Shown here: piece after piece, positions 4,745 through 21,102 of the stretch
How positions within the stretch are numbered: the first letter of the stretch is position 1
Layout: every line of letters starts with the position of its first letter
From: a virus
Taxonomy: Duplodnaviria > Heunggongvirae > Uroviricota > Caudoviricetes
Virus record (IMG/VR): IMGVR_UViG_3300028805_000044
Length of the DNA: 64,000 bases
Strand: one strand, 5' to 3'
Translations under genes and position numbers: made by a program
The notes under the pieces: generated by a model
The model's input: the letters and a program-made list of their open reading frames with translations, nothing else
The model's database searches: none
What the model was told of the DNA's origin: nothing

Positions 4745-4932
4745 ATTGGACAAAATCGTTTTGTATCCTTGTATGGATTATCTTAGTCATTCTTGGATCA
4801 GACTTAGCCTTTAGTTGGCTAAATTTGGCTAATACTGTAGCCAATATTGCTGGAGCATTCCTAGTATTATTTATAATTTTTATTTCAGTTAAAACAAAAG
4901 CATTTACTAATTTTAAATTTTGGAAAAAATGA
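4726..4932 (+). CDS. small membrane protein
   Basis: 68-aa ORF with two predicted TM segments. Confidence 0.35.
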   Translation: MLLSKMNWTKSFCILVWIILVILGSDLAFSWLNLANTVANIAGAFLVLFIIFISVKTKAFTNFKFWKK

Positions 4933-5502
4933 AAAAACTTTTAGGAATTTTGTTTGTTGTTATGCTTGCATTAGTAGGTATGACAAGTTGTGGTCTTGAG
5001 CGTGTGGACGCAGGTTGTGAAGGCATTGAAGTATCTCTGTATGGAGATGATCGAGGTGTTGGCGAAGTTAACTTGGTAACTGGCTGGGTAGTTTACAATC
5101 CCTGGACCAAGCAAATTTTTGAGTATCCAACTTACGTCCAAACCATTGATTACGAACCTTTTACCATCAATGCCAAGGATGGCCCTCTCTTTACCATTGA
5201 TCCTAATGTAAATATTAAGGTTGCTGATGGTAAAGCTCCCCAAGTATTTAAAAAGTACAGAAAGGATTTACAAGATGTAATAAATGGACCTGTGCTCAAA
5301 TATATTAAAGACGCTTGTCGTATTGAAATTAATAAGTTCACAACGGATGAAATTGTCTCTAACAGAGAAATGATTGAAAATGCTATTGAAAAGCGTTTGA
5401 AATTCAATCTTGCTAAAGAGGGCTTTGTTCTCGACAACTTTACTTCTGGTCTGAAATATCCTGAATCGATTGTCGAAGCAATTAATGCCAAGACCAAGGC
5501 TT
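4920..5502 (+). CDS. SPFH/band-7 (prohibitin/HflC-like) lipoprotein, exon 1; lipobox-type signal peptide
   Basis: N-terminus MEKMKKLLGILFVVMLALVGMTSC is followed by an SPFH core (VDAGCEGIEVSLYG...TIDPNVNIKVADG...ESIVEAINAKTKA). The SPFH fold stops abruptly at TAA 5502-5504. Boundary is ±1 nt. Confidence 0.7.
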
Positions 5503-6441
5503 AATATGTAGGGCCCCCTATGTAGTAATATATAGGGATAACTCCTCTAATTGCTGGAACCTCCATGTAAAATTAATTTTATATTTTTATTTTCATTCTC
5601 AACAATTATTTTTATTTTCATATATAGAAAATAAATAATAGCTATAGATAATGAAATTAATAAAAATTTAAATTTTAATTATTATGGAAAATCAGCAGCT
5701 AAAGACAAAAAATGCTCAAAAGTATTTTATCAAACCTGGATAGGTTTATGGTAATTTTAAAACTATTGAAGAAATAAAAATTCAAACTAGCAAGTGTGTA
5801 GAGACAAGGTGGAGATGTTTACATTTACCAACAGGACAAGAGAAACTAGAAAGAGCTTCATATCTTATAAAGTTTCCTACTCTTGAAGAAAAACAAGCAG
5901 AGCTTGATAAAATGGTAGAAGAAGATCGTCACCAACTTGGATTTCGTAATTATTTATTTAGAAATGCACAAAAAGGAGCTAAAGAAAGAAAACATGAATT
6001 TAACTTATCTTATGATGAATTTATAAGTATAATTAAAAAACCATGTTATTATTGCGGGGAAGCTCCAAGACCTGCAACTATGGATCAATTAAAAAAGAGG
6101 GGTAATACTCAAGAACCCACTTTTTATTATAATGGTATAGACAGAATAGATCCTAATGGTAATTATGATTTACATAATTGTGTACCTTGCTGTCCAGTAT
6201 GTAACTATATGAAACATACTTTAGCACAAAATGAATTTTATAAACATATTCTAAAAATAGTAGAGCATTTAAGTTTAAGTTCAACGACTATCTCGAAAGA
6301 GAGTACAGTACAAGCTAATGGTACTGGAAATGGGGAGGATCCAGAAATGGATCAAGATATAGTCTCATCTGCATGTATAAATAAAGATGCAGCGGTCTTA
6401 AATGACGGGGATGAGAGTTGCGTCTCATCTTGAAGATATTG
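5503..6441 (+). mobile_element. putative self-splicing (group I-like) intron carrying an HNH homing endonuclease, inserted in the SPFH gene
   Basis: A 0.94-kb interruption lies between the two halves of one SPFH protein. An in-frame stop sits right at the 5' junction. The upstream exon ends in U and the element ends in G. A possible P1 forms between exon GGCU and intron GGGCC at 5511-5515. Hairpins lie in the last 80 nt (ctgcat/atgcag and gatgaga/tctcatc). Confidence 0.55.
5912..6433 (+). CDS. HNH homing endonuclease (intron-encoded)
   Basis: Contains CYYCG ... GIDRIDPNGNYDLHNCVPCCPVCNYMKH, which is an HNH motif with a zinc-binding Cys pair. Confidence 0.75.
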   Translation: MVEEDRHQLGFRNYLFRNAQKGAKERKHEFNLSYDEFISIIKKPCYYCGEAPRPATMDQLKKRGNTQEPTFYYNGIDRIDPNGNYDLHNCVPCCPVCNYMKHTLAQNEFYKHILKIVEHLSLSSTTISKESTVQANGTGNGEDPEMDQDIVSSACINKDAAVLNDGDESCVSS

Positions 6442-6666
6442 GTACAGGAAGCTCAAAGAGTAGAAAACGAGTTAAAGATTGCTGAGGCTGAAGCACGTAA
6501 AAAGATTGTTGCAGCTGAAGCAGAAAAGCAAGCTAATGAACTTAGGACTCAAGCTTTAACTCCTGCTATTCTACAGCAAATGTGGATTGAGAAATGGGAT
6601 GGTACTTTGCCTCAGACTATGGCTGGAGGTGATTCTAAATTACTCTTAAACTTACCTTCTAAGTGA
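6442..6666 (+). CDS. SPFH/band-7 protein, exon 2 (C-terminal coiled-coil and KWDG region)
   Basis: VQEAQRVENELKIAEAEARKKIVAAEAEKQANELRTQALTPAILQQMWIEKWDGTLPQ is a typical prohibitin/HflC C-terminus. It joins exon 1 in frame as ...AINAKTKA|VQEAQR. Confidence 0.65.
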   Translation, partial: VQEAQRVENELKIAEAEARKKIVAAEAEKQANELRTQALTPAILQQMWIEKWDGTLPQTMAGGDSKLLLNLPSK

Positions 6667-13633: not shown

Positions 13634-14251
13634 TTGAACAAGTATAATTTAAATATTGATGAGGAGATAGCAATGCTAGAGAAGTATCAGCTAACTCCTG
13701 ATGAACTTTTTATAGTTAGATTAATCTTTATTACAAAAGAAGGTTATCCAGAGAATTATCTATTTAAGTTTTTTCAAATTGGAGATAATAAATCCGGTTT
13801 TAGAGGGAACTTGGAATCTTTACAGAATAAAGGAGTAATTCTTAAGTCTTATAAGATTCCAGCTAAAGGAGAAAGATTTGACCCTGCAGCTATTCCTTTT
13901 AATAAGAACTTTGAAAATGCTTTGTATAGAAGTGCCTTTGATATGGGACAAGAACTTTATGAGGCATATCCAATGTTTGCAACAATTCAAGGAGCAACTG
14001 TTTCTATAAGAGGAGTATCTAAGAAGTTTAATACACTTGAAGATGCCTTTCGTTATTATGGTAAACAGATACGTTGGAATAATGAAACTCATAAACATAT
14101 TCTTGAACTACTGGATTGGGCACAAAATAATACTACATTTATAAACTTCTCTCTTGCTACGTTCCTTATAGATAGGAAGTGGGAAGAGATAGAGGCTTTA
14201 AAGAATGGAGAACTTTCTGATATTAACTATAACTCTATGCGCTCTATATGA
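13634..14251 (+). CDS. hypothetical protein
   Basis: 205-aa ORF. Confidence 0.35.
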   Translation: MNKYNLNIDEEIAMLEKYQLTPDELFIVRLIFITKEGYPENYLFKFFQIGDNKSGFRGNLESLQNKGVILKSYKIPAKGERFDPAAIPFNKNFENALYRSAFDMGQELYEAYPMFATIQGATVSIRGVSKKFNTLEDAFRYYGKQIRWNNETHKHILELLDWAQNNTTFINFSLATFLIDRKWEEIEALKNGELSDINYNSMRSI

Positions 14252-15336
14252 TTACTGAATCAGTATTGGAGCTTATTAAACGAGGTCGTGAAGGACATAA
14301 CCAAGGTATATCGATTGGTATGCCTAAACTAGAGAGTATAATAGATGGACTTACTCACTCTACTTATTATCTTCTATTCGGAGGTACTGGTAGTGGTAAG
14401 ACTACTTTTGCTCTTTATTCTTTTATCTATAAACCATTAGTACAACATCTAGACGACGACAACTTTCGAGTAATTTATTATTCATTGGAGATGTCTGCTG
14501 ATATGTTATTCTTAAAACTCCTATGTATGCATATATGGGATGAATATCATATAGAGGTATCTCCTAAGGAGTTAATGTCCCGTAAAAAGAACTATATTCT
14601 AGATGATGACCTTTATAAAATAGTACTAGAATGTCAACCTTGGCTTACTAAAATAGAACAGAAAATTACTGTCTATGATAGAGCATTAAATGCACAAGTT
14701 CTTTATGCTAATTTACATGCTGAGCTTGAAAAGGAAGGTGAATTTATAAATACTGATAAAAGAATACTATTTAAACCAAAGAATCCCGATAAAATCATTC
14801 TCGTTTGTATGGATCATATTGGATTGGTACGTCCAGGACAAGGTTCTACTCTTAAGAACGAAATTGATTTATGTAGTAAGTATCTTCTTACATTTAGAAA
14901 TATATGTGGAGTTAGTCCACTTGTTCTAATGCAGATAAATAGAGATAGTACTTCTACTGATAGAAGAAAGCTAGACATGATTGACCTAAAACTTAGTGAT
15001 ATCAAAGATAGTGGCAATCCATCACAGGATGCTGAGGTTATTCTTGGTATATTATCTCCTCATAGAGAACAGCTTAATAAGTATAAGAAATATGATATTT
15101 CTCAGCTTGAAGATAAGTTTAGAAGTATTTCTGTACTTAAATCTAGATATGGTGAATCTGAAATTCAAATAGGTTCTACATTCTATGGTAAAGCTGGACT
15201 ATTTAAGGAGTTACCAAAAGGTGATCAGATCACTTGTTATGATCCTTATATGGACGTTAGTTATATGTTGTCAGATGAAATAACTCAAAATGAAAGAATA
15301 GATGAAAACGTAGTTAATCTAAACTTTACAATGTAA
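14248..15336 (+). CDS. DnaB-like replicative helicase (RecA-fold C-terminal domain)
   Basis: Walker A FGGTGSGKTT, DnaB H1a motif YYSLEMS, and Walker-B-like ILVCMDHIGL. Confidence 0.65.
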   Translation: MITESVLELIKRGREGHNQGISIGMPKLESIIDGLTHSTYYLLFGGTGSGKTTFALYSFIYKPLVQHLDDDNFRVIYYSLEMSADMLFLKLLCMHIWDEYHIEVSPKELMSRKKNYILDDDLYKIVLECQPWLTKIEQKITVYDRALNAQVLYANLHAELEKEGEFINTDKRILFKPKNPDKIILVCMDHIGLVRPGQGSTLKNEIDLCSKYLLTFRNICGVSPLVLMQINRDSTSTDRRKLDMIDLKLSDIKDSGNPSQDAEVILGILSPHREQLNKYKKYDISQLEDKFRSISVLKSRYGESEIQIGSTFYGKAGLFKELPKGDQITCYDPYMDVSYMLSDEITQNERIDENVVNLNFTM

Positions 15337-15613
15337 ATGGCTGAACTAATCGCTATTGTTGGTGAATCTGGGTCTGGTAAGACCACATCTATTAGAAACT
15401 TAAATCCGAAAGAAACATTTATTATATCTACTACAGGTAAGAGACCAGGAATTAAGGGTGCTAAAAAGAAGTATCCTGATTTCAAGGTCAATAAGGAAAC
15501 AAAGGAGATGACAGGTAATTTCTATACTTCTTCTAACATCGACTCTATAAAGCAGATGATGAAGATAGTAAACTTGAAAATGCCAAACGTTAAAGTACTG
15601 ATTATTGATGATT
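15337..15613 (+). CDS. P-loop ATPase (Sak4/AAA_24-like), exon 1
   Basis: Walker A IVGESGSGKTT. The ORF ends at Walker B VLIIDD and is immediately followed by TAA. Exon 1 ends in U. Confidence 0.55.
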
Positions 15614-16698
15614 AACTTAAATTAACATTTAAAAGTTTGAATATATTTTCAAAAATTCGTAAGTATTAATATATTTGAGTAGTAACTTAAATATTTAATC
15701 TTATGAATTTAAAATATAATGAATCACAAATTATTGAGCTGTATAATCAAGGATTATCAGATAAAGAAATTTCTGAGATACTTGGTGTAACTGAGACAGC
15801 TTTTTCTTGTAAAAGAAGGAAAATGGGCTTAAAGGCTCATACTAAAGCAAAAAGAGAAGATTATATTCCAAATGAAAAAGAAATAGCTATTATAGTAGGA
15901 ACTCTGTTAGGAGATAGTACAATAAGATATGTACATGAAAAATGTAAATATCCAAACTTAACCTTTGTACATTCACCAAAACAGGAAGAATACTTTAACT
16001 ATTTGTCCGAAGAATTAAAAAACTTTAGGGCTTCATCTGGAAGATATGTAGACCATAATAAGTTAAATAAATATGGCTACAAACTTGTATATACTGGAAG
16101 AAACATGAAATGTTTGAAAACTATAAGAGATAGATTTTATTCAAATGGTAAGAAAATAATACCCCCATTTATCATAAGAAAATATTTTACAGAATTAAGT
16201 CTGTACTATATGTTTATGGATAATGGTAGTTATGATAAAACAGGTAATAGTTATATTATAAATACTCAATGTTTTACCATAGAAGAGCTTACTGAATTCT
16301 GTGATATTATGGAAGAAAAATTTGGACTTTCTTTTAATATAAAGAAAGATCATACCTTGTATTTAAAACATGAATGTAATTCTATTATGTATAATATCTT
16401 ATCTAAAAACAATAAATGTGATTCTATGACTTATAAATGTGGAAAGTCATCGTTAAACTCCGTTAAACAGGGAAACTCCTTAAAGGACAATCCTGTGCTA
16501 AACCCTCAAGAAATTGAGGAAAATGCCGAACGACTAGAAGTGATGCCTAACGAGAAAGACGAGGCTATAAGTTCTTCCACGAAAGCGGGGCACTGTTCAG
16601 AGTAAGGTCCGTGAGGATATAAAATGAATCAAAGATATAGTCTGACCAATGCAGTAATGTATTGATGTAGGAGATAAAGAACTCTTACGATAACAACG
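15614..16698 (+). mobile_element. putative group I-like intron carrying a LAGLIDADG homing endonuclease, inserted in the P-loop ATPase gene
   Basis: A 1.08-kb interruption exactly at the Walker B motif. The flanking exon ends in U and the element ends in G (16698). Exon 2 continues in frame as ...LIIDD-L-FQYLQAF. Confidence 0.5.
15703..16605 (+). CDS. double-motif LAGLIDADG homing endonuclease with N-terminal HTH
   Basis: Two LAGLIDADG-type motifs (IIVGTLLGDSTI and YYMFMDNGSY) plus an HTH (LSDKEISEILGVTETA). Confidence 0.7.
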   Translation: MNLKYNESQIIELYNQGLSDKEISEILGVTETAFSCKRRKMGLKAHTKAKREDYIPNEKEIAIIVGTLLGDSTIRYVHEKCKYPNLTFVHSPKQEEYFNYLSEELKNFRASSGRYVDHNKLNKYGYKLVYTGRNMKCLKTIRDRFYSNGKKIIPPFIIRKYFTELSLYYMFMDNGSYDKTGNSYIINTQCFTIEELTEFCDIMEEKFGLSFNIKKDHTLYLKHECNSIMYNILSKNNKCDSMTYKCGKSSLNSVKQGNSLKDNPVLNPQEIEENAERLEVMPNEKDEAISSSTKAGHCSE

Positions 16699-17123
16699 TG
16701 TTTCAGTATCTCCAGGCGTTCGAGAACATGAATCGTGTTGATGAGAAGGGATATAATAAGTTTACAGATATCGCTAAGCATGCATATGAGGCTTTGAGGA
16801 CTGGTATGGACATGCGTGACGATTTATTTGTAATAGTAATGACTCATAGTGAAAATACTGGAGATAATCTCAATCCTTACTGGAAAATCAAGACAATTGG
16901 TAAAATGTTAGATAGTGTTATTACACTTGAAGGATTATTTACCTATGTGTTCTTTACTCGTGTACTTAATGATGAATCTGACGGAGTAAAATATAAGTTC
17001 CTAACCAACTCAGATGGAACCTGTACAGCTAAATCCCCAATGGGACTATTTGAAGATTTACTTATAGACAATGACTTAGATTATGTTATTAAGAAAATCA
17101 CCGAATATAACGAAGGAGAATGA
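16699..17123 (+). CDS. P-loop ATPase, exon 2
   Basis: In-frame continuation after the insert (FQYLQAFENMNRVDEKGY...). The upstream in-frame stop is at 16692. Confidence 0.5.
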
Positions 17124-19554: not shown

Positions 19555-20091
19555 TTGAACACTTCGTGTAAAGCTATTTTTAAAGATGGCAGTACTAAAG
19601 AATTTGCTTCCATCGAGGAAGCATCAAAAGAAACAGGCATTACAGTTGCTGCAATTAAAATCAGATGCAATAAAGCTGGATGTGGAGGAAAAGAAAAAAT
19701 CTGTTTCGAATGGTTAGATGAACATACAAAACGTTCTTATCAAGCAAAAAAATCTAGAAGTAAAGGAGCTTCTTGGGAACGTGAAGTCATTAATAAGTTA
19801 AAAGAGATAGGATTTACTGGCTGTGTTACTTCTAGAGGAGAATCTAAAAAAGTAGATAATAATAAAATTGATATTATAGATACTGAAGGAAAGTTACCTA
19901 TTAATATTCAATGTAAACAATATCAAAATACTCCATCTTATTTTACTATTAGAGATGCATGCACTGATAAAAGCAAACCTTTTGCTGTATTTTGGAAGAA
20001 ATCTCCTGAAGGAGGAGAAAATAGTAAAGGCTCTATAGTAATGATAGATACAGAATATTTCCTAAAGCTTTTAGCTTTAACTTTAAAATGA
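19555..20091 (+). CDS. putative PD-(D/E)xK nuclease with N-terminal NUMOD1-like HTH
   Basis: HTH segment EFASIEEASKETGITVAAIKIRC, then GES..D..KIDIID..E...QCK. Non-ATG (TTG) start. Confidence 0.35.
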   Translation: MNTSCKAIFKDGSTKEFASIEEASKETGITVAAIKIRCNKAGCGGKEKICFEWLDEHTKRSYQAKKSRSKGASWEREVINKLKEIGFTGCVTSRGESKKVDNNKIDIIDTEGKLPINIQCKQYQNTPSYFTIRDACTDKSKPFAVFWKKSPEGGENSKGSIVMIDTEYFLKLLALTLK

Positions 20092-20586
20092 CCACATATA
20101 TATACGCTGTTTGTGATGATGCTGGCAATCATCTAAAGACTGTTAATGCTGTGTCTATGAATGCAGCTAAAGAAAAAATAATAGAAAGATTTAGAGATTT
20201 ACTAGAATTAGATGAAGAATTTTATAATTGGAATGACTTTATTGATTTTATGAAAAATCATGATATAGTCATATCTAAGTGTATACAAGACATAGAAGCT
20301 TTATGAAAATATATAAAGTAGTTAAAAGAGAGGAAAATCCTACCATTTCACTTAGTAAGGTGAGTATGGAAGATGGGTTCTTAATTGTTATATCCAATGG
20401 TGAAGCAATTGGAATAATTGTTCACGATGATTGTAAAGAACAATACATAATGATTACATACTTTAATGATAGCTTCGAAAGTGGAATTAATGCTGATTAT
20501 TATGATGAGAATCTTGAGAAACTAATAGAAGAAATCAGAAAGGATTATACAGAACCTGTTGAACTTAACTTTGTAAGAATCACACA

Positions 20587-21102
20587 ATGAGAATAGGACT
20601 TGACCTCGATGGAACTGTAGATGACTTTATGAATCCCTATTTAGAAAGATTTGGACATCCAAAGAAAGATTCTGAGATAACGAAAAATGTTCAACGTGTA
20701 CTTAGTAAAGATAGAGATTTTTGGCTTAATTTGCCTGTACTTAGATATATAGATTTTACACCAGAGTTGTATTGTACTAAACGAGTAAATCCAAAACAAT
20801 GGACTCGTAAATGGTTAATAGAGAATGGTTTTCCAAATCGTCCTATTTATCAGATGTACTATCAACATGGAAATAAAGCTACTATGATTAAAGGAAGAGT
20901 TGATGTATTTGTTGACGATTCCATCTCTAACTTTATAAAATTGAACTTATCTGGAGTTCCATGTCTTCTTATAGACCAGCCTGATAATCAAGAGTGGGGA
21001 CCTATAGGAAGAATCTTTACCCTTAATAAAGAGGAAATAGTAGATGCATATAACTTACTCATAGATACTGGAATGTTTGATAACTTTAAGAATCTCTTAT
21101 GA
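20587..21102 (+). CDS. HAD-family 5'(3')-deoxyribonucleotidase
   Basis: DxDGT motif IGLDLDGTVDDF at the N-terminus. Confidence 0.6.
   Translation: MRIGLDLDGTVDDFMNPYLERFGHPKKDSEITKNVQRVLSKDRDFWLNLPVLRYIDFTPELYCTKRVNPKQWTRKWLIENGFPNRPIYQMYYQHGNKATMIKGRVDVFVDDSISNFIKLNLSGVPCLLIDQPDNQEWGPIGRIFTLNKEEIVDAYNLLIDTGMFDNFKNLL

Follow-up and report, generated by a model that had tools for sequence, protein, structure and literature searches.

The window analysed here is a 64,000-nucleotide stretch of phage DNA. Judged by its sequence, the host is a crAss-like phage: the best matches of its PolA are Crassvirales, and the source contig measures 192,637 nt. In the replication module of this large phage lies the gene of a P-loop ATPase, interrupted by an insert that carries an open reading frame for a LAGLIDADG endonuclease. 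The main features of the locus are the following.

15337..15612, + strand: ATPase exon 1, 92 codons, with Walker A (GESGSGKTT) and, at its end, Walker B (VLIIDD); positions 1-82 of PHROG 2872
15613..16700, + strand: predicted group I intron, 1,088 nt, opening with UAA and closing with omega-G16700
15703..16605, + strand: endonuclease gene, 300 aa, I-SceI-like monomeric double-LAGLIDADG protein; Pfam PF03161, PHROG 11023
16442..16605, + strand: dual-use stretch of ORF and ribozyme, 164 nt; the last ~54 codons also form the guide and P3 through the 5' strand of P8
16603-16605, + strand: stop codon (TAA) of the endonuclease, inside the internal loop of P8
16701..17123, + strand: ATPase exon 2, 140 codons and a stop, first bases UUUCAG (FQ...); positions 83-212 of PHROG 2872

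The ATPase and its splice junctions

The open reading frame 15337..15615 is as the initial annotation had described it, with GESGSGKTT as Walker A and VLIIDD followed by TAA; the UAA at 15613-15615 is the in-frame stop of exon 1. The interruption falls immediately behind the codon for the second Asp of Walker B. When the two parts are fused, the product matches PHROG 2872 ('Sak4-like ssDNA annealing protein') with an E value of 1.2e-56, residues 1-231 aligning with positions 1-212 of 219, and the two halves adjoin on this one profile (1-82, then 83-212). The fused protein also aligns as one unbroken piece in 168 phage records. The alignment that had been proposed earlier as a check was thus carried out and gave a single, contiguous ATPase domain. 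Of the Sak4/AAA_24 identity suggested at the same time, the Sak4 part stands by the PHROG match, whereas Pfam AAA_24 (PF13479) is a borderline miss, with 26.0 bits against a cut-off of 27 (residues 5-196 on positions 5-185 of 195). A sequence search of the spliced ATPase against the PDB returned P-loop matches only and no further solved-structure relative. We regard the protein as a probable Sak4-like P-loop ATPase with a RecA fold, for which the family annotation suggests a putative function in ssDNA annealing.

The splice junctions were taken from intron-less alleles, which place the 5' splice-site U at U15612 and the start of exon 2 at 16701. Two contigs, each of which may stem from a DNA allele or from spliced RNA, lack exactly 15613..16700. 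In the first (L016), the flanks are 100% identical over 2,607 nt and the junction reads ...ATTATTGATGAT joined directly to TTTCAGTATCTC...; the second (L115) shows 99% identity. About 20 further, more distant alleles (65-91% identity) likewise join 15612 to 16701, some of them on genomic contigs of 45-195 kb. JGI sample 3300024486 contains both intron-plus and intron-minus contigs, with the same start base and identical exons, and the intron-plus arrangement is reproduced at 100% in the independent assemblies SRR9006654 and SRR9006655. Megablast comparison of the locus with 50,697 phage records gave no match, and no mention of the sample identifiers 3300024486, 3300034645 and Ga0371491 was found in the literature.

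With these alleles the boundaries could be corrected. The junction proposed before, between U15613 and G16698 with an extra Leu, misses by 1 nt on the 5' side and by 2 nt on the 3' side, and no residue is expected to be added: the spliced ATPase would be a protein of 232 aa in which ...LIIDD runs directly into FQYL.... The downstream frame does resume as FQYLQAF..., as had been read, but not at 16699, the Phe codon being 16701-16703. A stop codon directly at the 5' junction was correctly recognized here (UAA), but it is not a rule of the family, in which L028 and L084 stop 3-4 codons into the intron.

Guide sequence, ribozyme core and intron family

In a search of a 1.3-kb subsequence, the group I model of Rfam (RF00028) matches 16410..16664 with 64.4 bits and an E value of 9.9e-16. 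The covariance-model search recommended in the initial annotation is thereby positive, with a score above the gathering cut-off of 50 bits. The group I match region is the 3' 259 nt of the intron. Whole-window Rfam scans, run at the gathering threshold and at E ≤ 0.001, missed the intron, which reflects loss in the filters and not absence but shows that the match depends on search settings. The ribozyme elements are listed below.

15606-15612, + strand: 5' strand of P1 (UGAUGAU), the last 7 nt of exon 1
15613..16441, + strand: P1 loop (L1), made up of the 90-nt leader and the body of the endonuclease ORF
16442..16452, + strand: internal guide sequence GAAA-GUCAUCG, supported by complementarity and covariation
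16442-45, + strand: P10, GAAA pairing with UUUC, the first 4 nt of exon 2
16446-52, + strand: 3' strand of P1, GUCAUCG pairing with UGAUGAU of exon 1; G16446-U15612 is the wobble at the splice site
16458..16700, + strand: ribozyme core, P3-P9.1 with no P2, from RF00028 and covariation
16458-63 / 16585-90, + strand: P3
16467-72 / 16491-96, + strand: P4
16477-80 / 16484-87, + strand: P5
16497-98 / 16525-26, + strand: P6
16504-09 / 16514-19, + strand: P6a
16532-36 / 16638-42, + strand: P7
16537-40 / 16574-77, + strand: P7.1, with an inner helix 16545-48 / 16562-65
16595-99 / 16625-29, + strand: P8
16607-10 / 16615-18, + strand: P8a
16647-53 / 16658-64, + strand: P9, with a GUAA loop
16667-73 / 16682-88, + strand: P9.1

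The guide sequence immediately precedes P3 and is 833 nt beyond the 5' splice site. Because of this distance and because P2 is missing, the endonuclease ORF is located in the P1 loop, from which it continues across the guide and two thirds of the core to its stop in P8. A guide sequence within the 90-nt 5' leader was rejected, as no candidate there showed consistent pairing across the relatives. The placement of P1 and P2 inside the ORF (16410-16445) by Rfam is an alignment artefact; the true partner of P1 is exon 1. A hairpin at 16537-16577, placed after P7 and before the 3' strand of P3, consists of an outer helix, in which three of the four pairs show double changes, and inner helices. It is an extension of the P7.1 type, as is usual in subgroup IA, and the intron belongs to this subgroup, with the class assigned at the IA level only.

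A 17-mer from the core is common to 30 viral contigs. In an alignment of the core from 21 sequences, 96.6% of the cells are paired, and compensatory (double) changes occur in 35 of the 62 pairs. None of 500 shuffles gave pairing as high, and slid controls reached 34-47%. The helices P3, P6 and P7 are invariant in the family; they are paired but, since they never vary, uninformative as to covariation.

Pairing of the guide with the exons was compared in 12 family members. P1 comprises 6-8 bp in these introns, which occur in two genes, and shows compensatory changes (exon/guide pairs GAUGAU/GUCAUC, GACGAU/GUCGUC and GAUCAGU/GCUGAUC); cognate combinations give 6.9 bp versus 3.45 bp for non-cognate ones. 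P10 is mostly 4-7 bp long (UUUC/GAAA, UAUCA/UGAUA and GGCGU/ACGCU), with 3.9 bp in cognate versus 0.69 bp in non-cognate combinations, but it reaches no more than 1-2 bp in L086, L098 and L108. All 12 introns end in G. Automatic splice-site calling, based on guide pairing and an open frame, was rejected because it produced many false candidates in AT-rich DNA; the final junctions in the relatives were set by protein continuity. Homologous introns occupy the same codon boundary in eight other distinct alleles. Relatives of 278-285 nt that have no ORF keep the core, with only 29-40 nt between the 5' splice site and the guide; one of these (L112) matches RF00028 with 60.9 bits, the model skipping P2.

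Endonuclease, splicing and mobility

The 300-aa ORF matches LAGLIDADG_2 (PF03161) with an E value of 5.5e-29 and 101.7 bits, the cut-off being 25 bits, and its residues 65-246 align with the I-SceI structure 3oor in the PDB (E 3e-10). The double-motif LAGLIDADG endonuclease recognized earlier at 15703..16605 is thus confirmed, whereas the helix-turn-helix reported with it corresponds to a weak N-terminal match to HTH_23 (aa ~6-39, E 0.0032, below the Pfam cut-off). Homologues vary in length from 247 to 305 aa, with their stops in variable loops. In LAGLIDADG enzymes, every motif supplies a single catalytic residue, and the two strands are cut by one domain each (PMC3017599). Motif 1 (...GTLLGD71S) has its catalytic acid, D71. 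Motif 2 (...YMFMD173N174GS) has N174 (codon AAT, 16222-16224) at the catalytic position, where 90 of 93 homologues have Asp. Within its own cluster at the level of at least 90%, Asp is present in 11 of the 12 full-length members. The relative P0001 (97% identical) also has Asp and is eight substitutions apart with no frameshift or stop; a second lineage, P0004, likewise has Asn. From these alignments, the present copy is a family member by descent, minus one catalytic residue. The N174 enzyme is probably impaired, either a nickase or inactive, which may be an early step in the usual decay of homing endonucleases.

The earlier proposal that a LAGLIDADG group I intron interrupts Walker B of a P-loop ATPase is upheld by the Rfam match, the covariation, the intron-less alleles and the contiguous fused protein. 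We consider it highly probable that a mobile group I intron occupies 15613..16700, within the Sak4-like ATPase gene of a crAss-like phage, and splicing is predicted. External guanosine would attack after U15612, after which exon 1 would attack after G16700, and the ligated mRNA would encode the 232-aa ATPase. Ribosomes on exon 1 would halt at the UAA with which the intron begins. Those that translate the tail of the endonuclease would unfold the ribozyme core, so that endonuclease translation and splicing would be mutually exclusive for each RNA molecule. In a mixed infection, the endonuclease would cut alleles that lack the intron, at the conserved Walker B sequence, and the intron would be copied in during repair.

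The chance that splicing is kept and mobility has been lost comes close to even without reaching it. The N174 endonuclease would then be dead and the intron inherited only vertically in this lineage. Such an element departs from the mobile intron on mobility alone. That Asn replaces a residue so widely conserved among the 93 homologues, in P0001 and in its own cluster argues for inactivation. LAGLIDADG enzymes moreover have their two active sites side by side, often with a metal ion in common, and a single substitution can thus affect the cutting of both strands (PMC3017599). However, the ORF is otherwise intact, the differences from P0001 having introduced neither a frameshift nor a stop, and Asn also occurs in P0004. 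Nicking enzymes can still drive recombination (PMC3017599), and the two forms with identical exons in sample 3300024486 could mean recent gain or loss of the intron.

It appears unlikely that the 164-nt overlap serves as a switch, in which a ribosome that completes the endonuclease unfolds the core and prevents splicing of that RNA molecule, and that at the same time the intact N174 protein has been retained as a maturase or nicking enzyme and is not a decaying endonuclease. If both were true, the element would be a regulated, partly domesticated part of crAss-like phage gene expression. We also find it rather improbable that the N174 protein acts as a maturase that aids folding of the long-range P1 (833 nt) and the core, and not as a DNA endonuclease. 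Such a role would fit an ORF that is intact though a catalytic residue is lost. LAGLIDADG maturases are known, one of them from a 23S intron of bacteria (PMC3984707), the maturase and endonuclease activities can be uncoupled by single substitutions (PMC3943268), and Yutin et al. labelled the crAss LAGLIDADG protein 'endonuclease maturase' (PMC7886860). On the other hand, the core has no obvious need for a protein, since relatives without an ORF, 278-285 nt long, retain the same core, and the Asn is confined to one recent lineage instead of being fixed in the family.

There is very little chance that the insert is a free-standing homing endonuclease gene that splits the ATPase into two separately translated halves without splicing, as in some split genes of T4-like phages. 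Exon 1 has its own stop codon, and in principle translation of the second half could begin at the GTG at 16698, but the ribozyme is complete and co-varying, the guide tracks the flanking exons in every relative, and the U and omega-G boundaries enclose exactly the bases that intron-less alleles lack. An intein or an assembly chimera is refuted: nothing apart from the LAGLIDADG domain, which inteins can also carry, favours the former, the TAA at the junction, the different frame of the endonuclease and the absence of a Hint/intein domain in Pfam speak against it, and the arrangement is 100% identical in the independent SRR9006654, SRR9006655 and JGI 3300024486 assemblies.

Relation to known introns

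Dense group I introns have been described in crAss-like Delta and Zeta phages, with ATP_43b among their targets (Yutin et al., 2021, PMC7886860); we infer that ATP_43b is the ATPase of this locus. The present phage is of the same type, as PolA points to Crassvirales and its 192.6 kb compares with 145-192 kb for Zeta; the same conserved replication genes are affected, including ATP_43b, a LAGLIDADG intron protein was annotated, and genomes carry several introns, with at least one and probably two in our window (PMC7886860). Unlike here, those introns were found by protein-domain signatures and no RNA structure was given (PMC7886860). Our analysis adds the exact junctions, the guide, a covarying core without P2, the position of the ORF in the P1 loop, the overlap of ORF and core, and the Asp-to-Asn change. 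A literature search pairing group I introns with Sak4 found nothing relevant.

The td, nrdB and nrdD (sunY) introns of phage T4 belong to subgroup IA2 and encode GIY-YIG or HNH endonucleases. They have a P2, and their ORFs are in P6 or P9 loops. Our intron differs from them in having no P2, an ORF in the P1 loop that overlaps the core, and a LAGLIDADG enzyme. The T4 introns share with it P7.1/P7.2-type extensions and an exon 1 whose translation ends at or near the 5' junction. Homing of T4 introns through double-strand-break repair in mixed infections (PMC3943268, PMC3984707) is similar in kind to what would be expected here.

LAGLIDADG enzymes are outside the families most often encoded by phage introns (PMC3984707). 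The best solved-structure match, I-SceI from the omega intron of yeast mitochondrial 21S rRNA, is likewise a monomer with two motifs (LILGDA there versus LLGDS here, and WFMDDGG versus MFMDNGS). Our protein differs in having an additional HTH-like region at its N terminus and a tail at its C terminus that the ribozyme sequence encodes, and in the Asn aligned with the catalytic Asp of the second motif; its host gene is a protein-coding gene of a phage, whereas that of I-SceI is an organellar rRNA gene. A phage group I intron with a loop ORF of PHROG 11023 and LAGLIDADG_2 is also known from the DNA polymerase gene of Bastillevirinae (Nitunavirus), as a single case among many HNH-carrying introns (PMC11878797). 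That intron is from a Bacillus phage and has a different target gene; the comparison covers its host gene and ORF family.

The locus is a well-supported but largely expected case of the intron load already described for crAss-like phages, and it leaves the current understanding of group I introns unchanged. Since that load is known mainly from protein signatures, the locus provides an RNA-level example with exact splice sites. For annotation, the ATPase should be given as one 232-aa protein and not as a 92-aa fragment and a 141-aa ORF, and the 300-aa ORF as an intron passenger, the last ~54 residues of which are a translation of the ribozyme. This arrangement escapes gene callers as well as whole-genome Rfam scans. 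The family of at least 30 related introns in several replication genes could improve gene models of abundant gut phages, and the endonuclease family, with the highly conserved Walker B coding sequence as its predicted target, could yield new meganuclease specificities.

Elsewhere in the window, a third motif resembling J8/7 at 20260 was discarded as a chance match, because it falls within a small ORF and Rfam gives no signal there. The initial annotation had counted two homing-endonuclease introns. The LAGLIDADG intron is borne out as one of them, and the HNH element at 5502..6432 is a plausible second one: the two SPFH halves flanking it are contiguous in phrog_200, but the RNA match is weak (20.1 bits).

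The interrupted ATPase gene and its junctions

The Sak4-like ATPase gene is split between two open reading frames around an insert with the following features.

15337..15615: ORF of 92 residues with Walker A GESGSGKTT and C-terminal end VLIIDD, immediately followed by TAA
15613..16700: insert of 1,088 nt, with last base G16700; the last base of exon 1 is U15612
15703..16605: LAGLIDADG endonuclease ORF of 300 aa (Pfam LAGLIDADG_2, E 5.5e-29, 101.7 bits, cut-off 25)
16442-16452: guide sequence GAAA-GUCAUCG, directly upstream of P3
ending at 17123: ORF with the C-terminal part of the ATPase, where reading resumes at FQYLQAF

The first ORF, with Walker A and a stop directly after Walker B, is present as the initial annotation described it, and the expectation that the fused product forms one contiguous domain was borne out. 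The two halves adjoin on a single profile, PHROG 2872 'Sak4-like' (positions 1-82 and 83-212), which the fused protein matches with E 1.2e-56, and the fusion gives a single unbroken alignment in 168 phage records. The proposed Sak4/AAA_24 family membership thus held for the Sak4-like profile, whereas Pfam AAA_24 scored 26.0 against residues 5-196, slightly under its cut-off of 27.

The junctions follow from uninterrupted ATPase alleles, many of which were found by a scan of viral contigs. All read [IV][IV]DD followed directly by [FYM]QY, with zero added residues. Contig L016 joins 15612 straight to 16701 and is 100% identical to the window across all 2,607 nt. The same join occurs at 99% identity in contig L115, which comes from a different sample (JGI 3300034645) and encodes the exact predicted 232-aa spliced product. 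The insert therefore spans 15613..16700, and the junction first proposed (U15613/G16698 with an extra Leu) was wrong by 1 and 2 nt. In JGI sample 3300024486, contig L118 runs from 122 nt of exon 1 through the entire intron and 11 nt into exon 2; L016 has the identical 122 nt fused to exon 2. Both start at window position 15491, each is 100% identical to the window, and their exons are identical. The pair looks like an assembly-graph branch at the 5' splice site. It represents either precursor RNA together with its spliced form, or DNA from a population that is polymorphic for the intron, and it supports the derived boundaries under both readings.

TAA opens the intron in the window copy and in contigs L024, L086, L095 and L110, whereas in L028, L084/L101, L098 and L113 its first bases are AAA. 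In L028 and L084, the only two of the latter with the stop located, the exon-frame stop lies 3-4 codons further in. A stop exactly at the 5' junction is thus frequent yet not conserved among the homologous leaders (window 15613..15702).

Ribozyme core, guide sequence and intron family

The covariance-model search proposed in the initial annotation, applied to the local 1.3 kb, gave an Rfam group I match at 16410..16664 (64.4 bits, E 9.9e-16, cut-off 50). Rfam scans of the entire window, at the gathering score and at E<=0.001, returned zero matches despite this 64-bit match. The speed filters drop it at 64 kb, so genome-scale Rfam scans under-count such introns.

Helices P3, P4, P5, P6/6a, P7, P7.1, P8/8a, P9 and P9.1 were derived on the window copy, and their pairing was counted across 21 distinct cores aligned with MAFFT. 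Standard pairs occupied 96.6% of cells, as compared to 34-47% with partners slid by 1-3 columns. Both sides had changed in 35 of 62 pairs (168 cells), and 0 of 500 shuffles matched any observed covariation measure; P3, P6 and P7 are paired but invariant across the cores and hence uninformative. The P7.1 hairpin, which separates P7 from the P3 3' strand, points to subgroup IA. P2 is absent from the window intron and was likewise skipped in the Rfam alignment of the ORF-less relative L112 (60.9 bits); its absence is a documented group I variation (PMC3984707).

No guide sequence consistent across relatives was found in the 90-nt leader. Instead, within GAAA-GUCAUCG at 16442-16452, GUCAUCG pairs with exon 1 UGAUGAU to form P1, with G16446-U15612 at the splice site, and GAAA pairs with exon 2 UUUC to form P10. 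Both helices co-vary with the exons in 12 family members from two genes: P1 as GAUGAU/GUCAUC, GACGAU/GUCGUC or GUUGUC, and GAUCAGU/GCUGAUC, and P10 as UUUC/GAAA, UAUCA/UGAUA, AUGC/GUAU, UGGC/GCCA and GGCGU/ACGCU. Mean pairing was 6.9 bp for cognate and 3.45 bp for non-cognate P1, and 3.9 versus 0.69 bp for P10.

On these sequence comparisons, the insert is confirmed as a group I intron carrying a LAGLIDADG homing endonuclease gene, and the initial annotation, junction offsets aside, had recognised it rightly: the Rfam score, the covariation and the intron-less alleles all agree. The co-variation of ribozyme and guide sequence contradicts the alternative in which a free-standing endonuclease gene divides the ATPase and no splicing takes place. 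The stop codon, the change of frame and the absent Hint domain exclude an intein, and independent assemblies exclude an assembly artefact.

A homologous insert occupies the same codon boundary in four further contig copies (L024 and L025, which are near-identical, L028 and L084). The invariant core 17-mer CCACGAAAGCGGGGCAC is present in 30 viral contigs, mostly from records of 80-280 kb, whose cores clearly form one family with sites in the Sak4-like ATPase, a DnaB-like helicase and at least one further gene. The helicase site, near a DAEIVL motif, is occupied in L088, L092, L102, L105 and L107, and another gene in L096, L112 and L114. In the window itself the DnaB-like gene (14248..15336) has no interruption. 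ORF-less members measure 278-285 nt.

The endonuclease

In ORF-less members the splice site lies 29-40 nt from the guide sequence, as compared to 833 nt in the window, which places the endonuclease gene in the P1 loop. The I-SceI-like domain ends at residue 246, where the guide sequence starts. The last ~54 codons traverse the guide sequence, P3, P4-P6, P7, P7.1 and the P3 3' strand, and the TAA stop lies inside the P8 internal loop. Since stop positions vary among homologues (247-305 aa) and most carry ribozyme-encoded peptides, this tail looks like read-through under RNA-level constraint. Intron ORFs reaching into the core have precedents, with expression described as being under tight control (PMC3984707). 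Two database proteins, P0094 and P0096, match this tail alone (76% identity, 17-21% of the query), and P0094 (328 aa) carries a Pfam DnaB_C domain; such entries look like gene calls running from exon into intron core, which would make them an annotation artefact of the intron family.

The LAGLIDADG assignment stood firm, but for the helix-turn-helix also claimed there were only weak N-terminal matches under cut-off. The closest solved structure is I-SceI (3oor, E 3e-10). The acidic residue of motif 1 is retained (D71). In motif 2, N174 (codon AAT, 16222-16224) aligns with the catalytic Asp of I-SceI. Of 93 aligned homologues, 90 have Asp in this column, the 97%-identical database protein P0001 among them, as do 11 of the 12 full-length proteins in the >=90% cluster to which the window protein belongs. 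N174 is not a read error, because independent assemblies that match the window at 100% contain exactly this sequence. LAGLIDADG enzymes use one catalytic residue per motif and cut one strand per domain (PMC3017599), so the window copy is probably a nickase or inactive.

Host phage, known relatives and further interruptions

The window encodes a replication module (SNF2-type helicase, DnaB-like helicase, Sak4-like ATPase, primase, DNA and RNA ligases, PolA and thymidylate synthase), and its PolA best matches Crassvirales at 35-50% identity. The contig from which the window derives is 192,637 nt long. Among crAss-like phages, Zeta-group genomes measure 145-192 kb and contain as many as 14 introns; for the Delta group, the core genes listed as having group I introns include the ATPase 'ATP_43b', and a LAGLIDADG intron protein has been annotated as well (Yutin et al., 2021, PMC7886860). 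Commoner phage-intron enzymes are GIY-YIG, HNH, PD-(D/E)xK and EDxHD (PMC3984707). A LAGLIDADG protein of PHROG 11023, like that of the window intron, is encoded in one intron from Bastillevirinae (PMC11878797). From these published cases the kind of element is already known; the junctions, the RNA architecture, the family definition and the Asp-to-Asn change are new.

A second gene is split at 4920..6666. A SPFH/Band_7 lipoprotein-like ORF (4920..5504, stop TAA 5502-04) resumes with its C-terminal part at 6433..6666, the halves covering phrog_200 positions 78-272 and 274-358. Between them, an HNH/EndoVII-like ORF (5912..6433) reaches the putative 3' splice site G6432. This insert scored only 20.1 bits with Rfam group I (E 0.028) but has a J8/7-P7 motif, AAGAUAUAGUCU, at 6354-6365. 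The segment 5502..6432 probably constitutes another group I intron, whose core belongs to a different family from that of the ATPase intron.

A stretch of ~340 nt at ~20243..20583, with a small ORF (20279..20590), is missing from the related contigs L002 and L008; no group I signal was found there, and the difference looks like an ordinary indel of a small gene. Directly after the primase gene lies a 178-aa ORF (19555..20091), also present in L002 and L008, in which the N-terminal stretch FASIEEASKETGITVAAIKIRCNK resembles the small modules with which free-standing homing endonucleases bind DNA.
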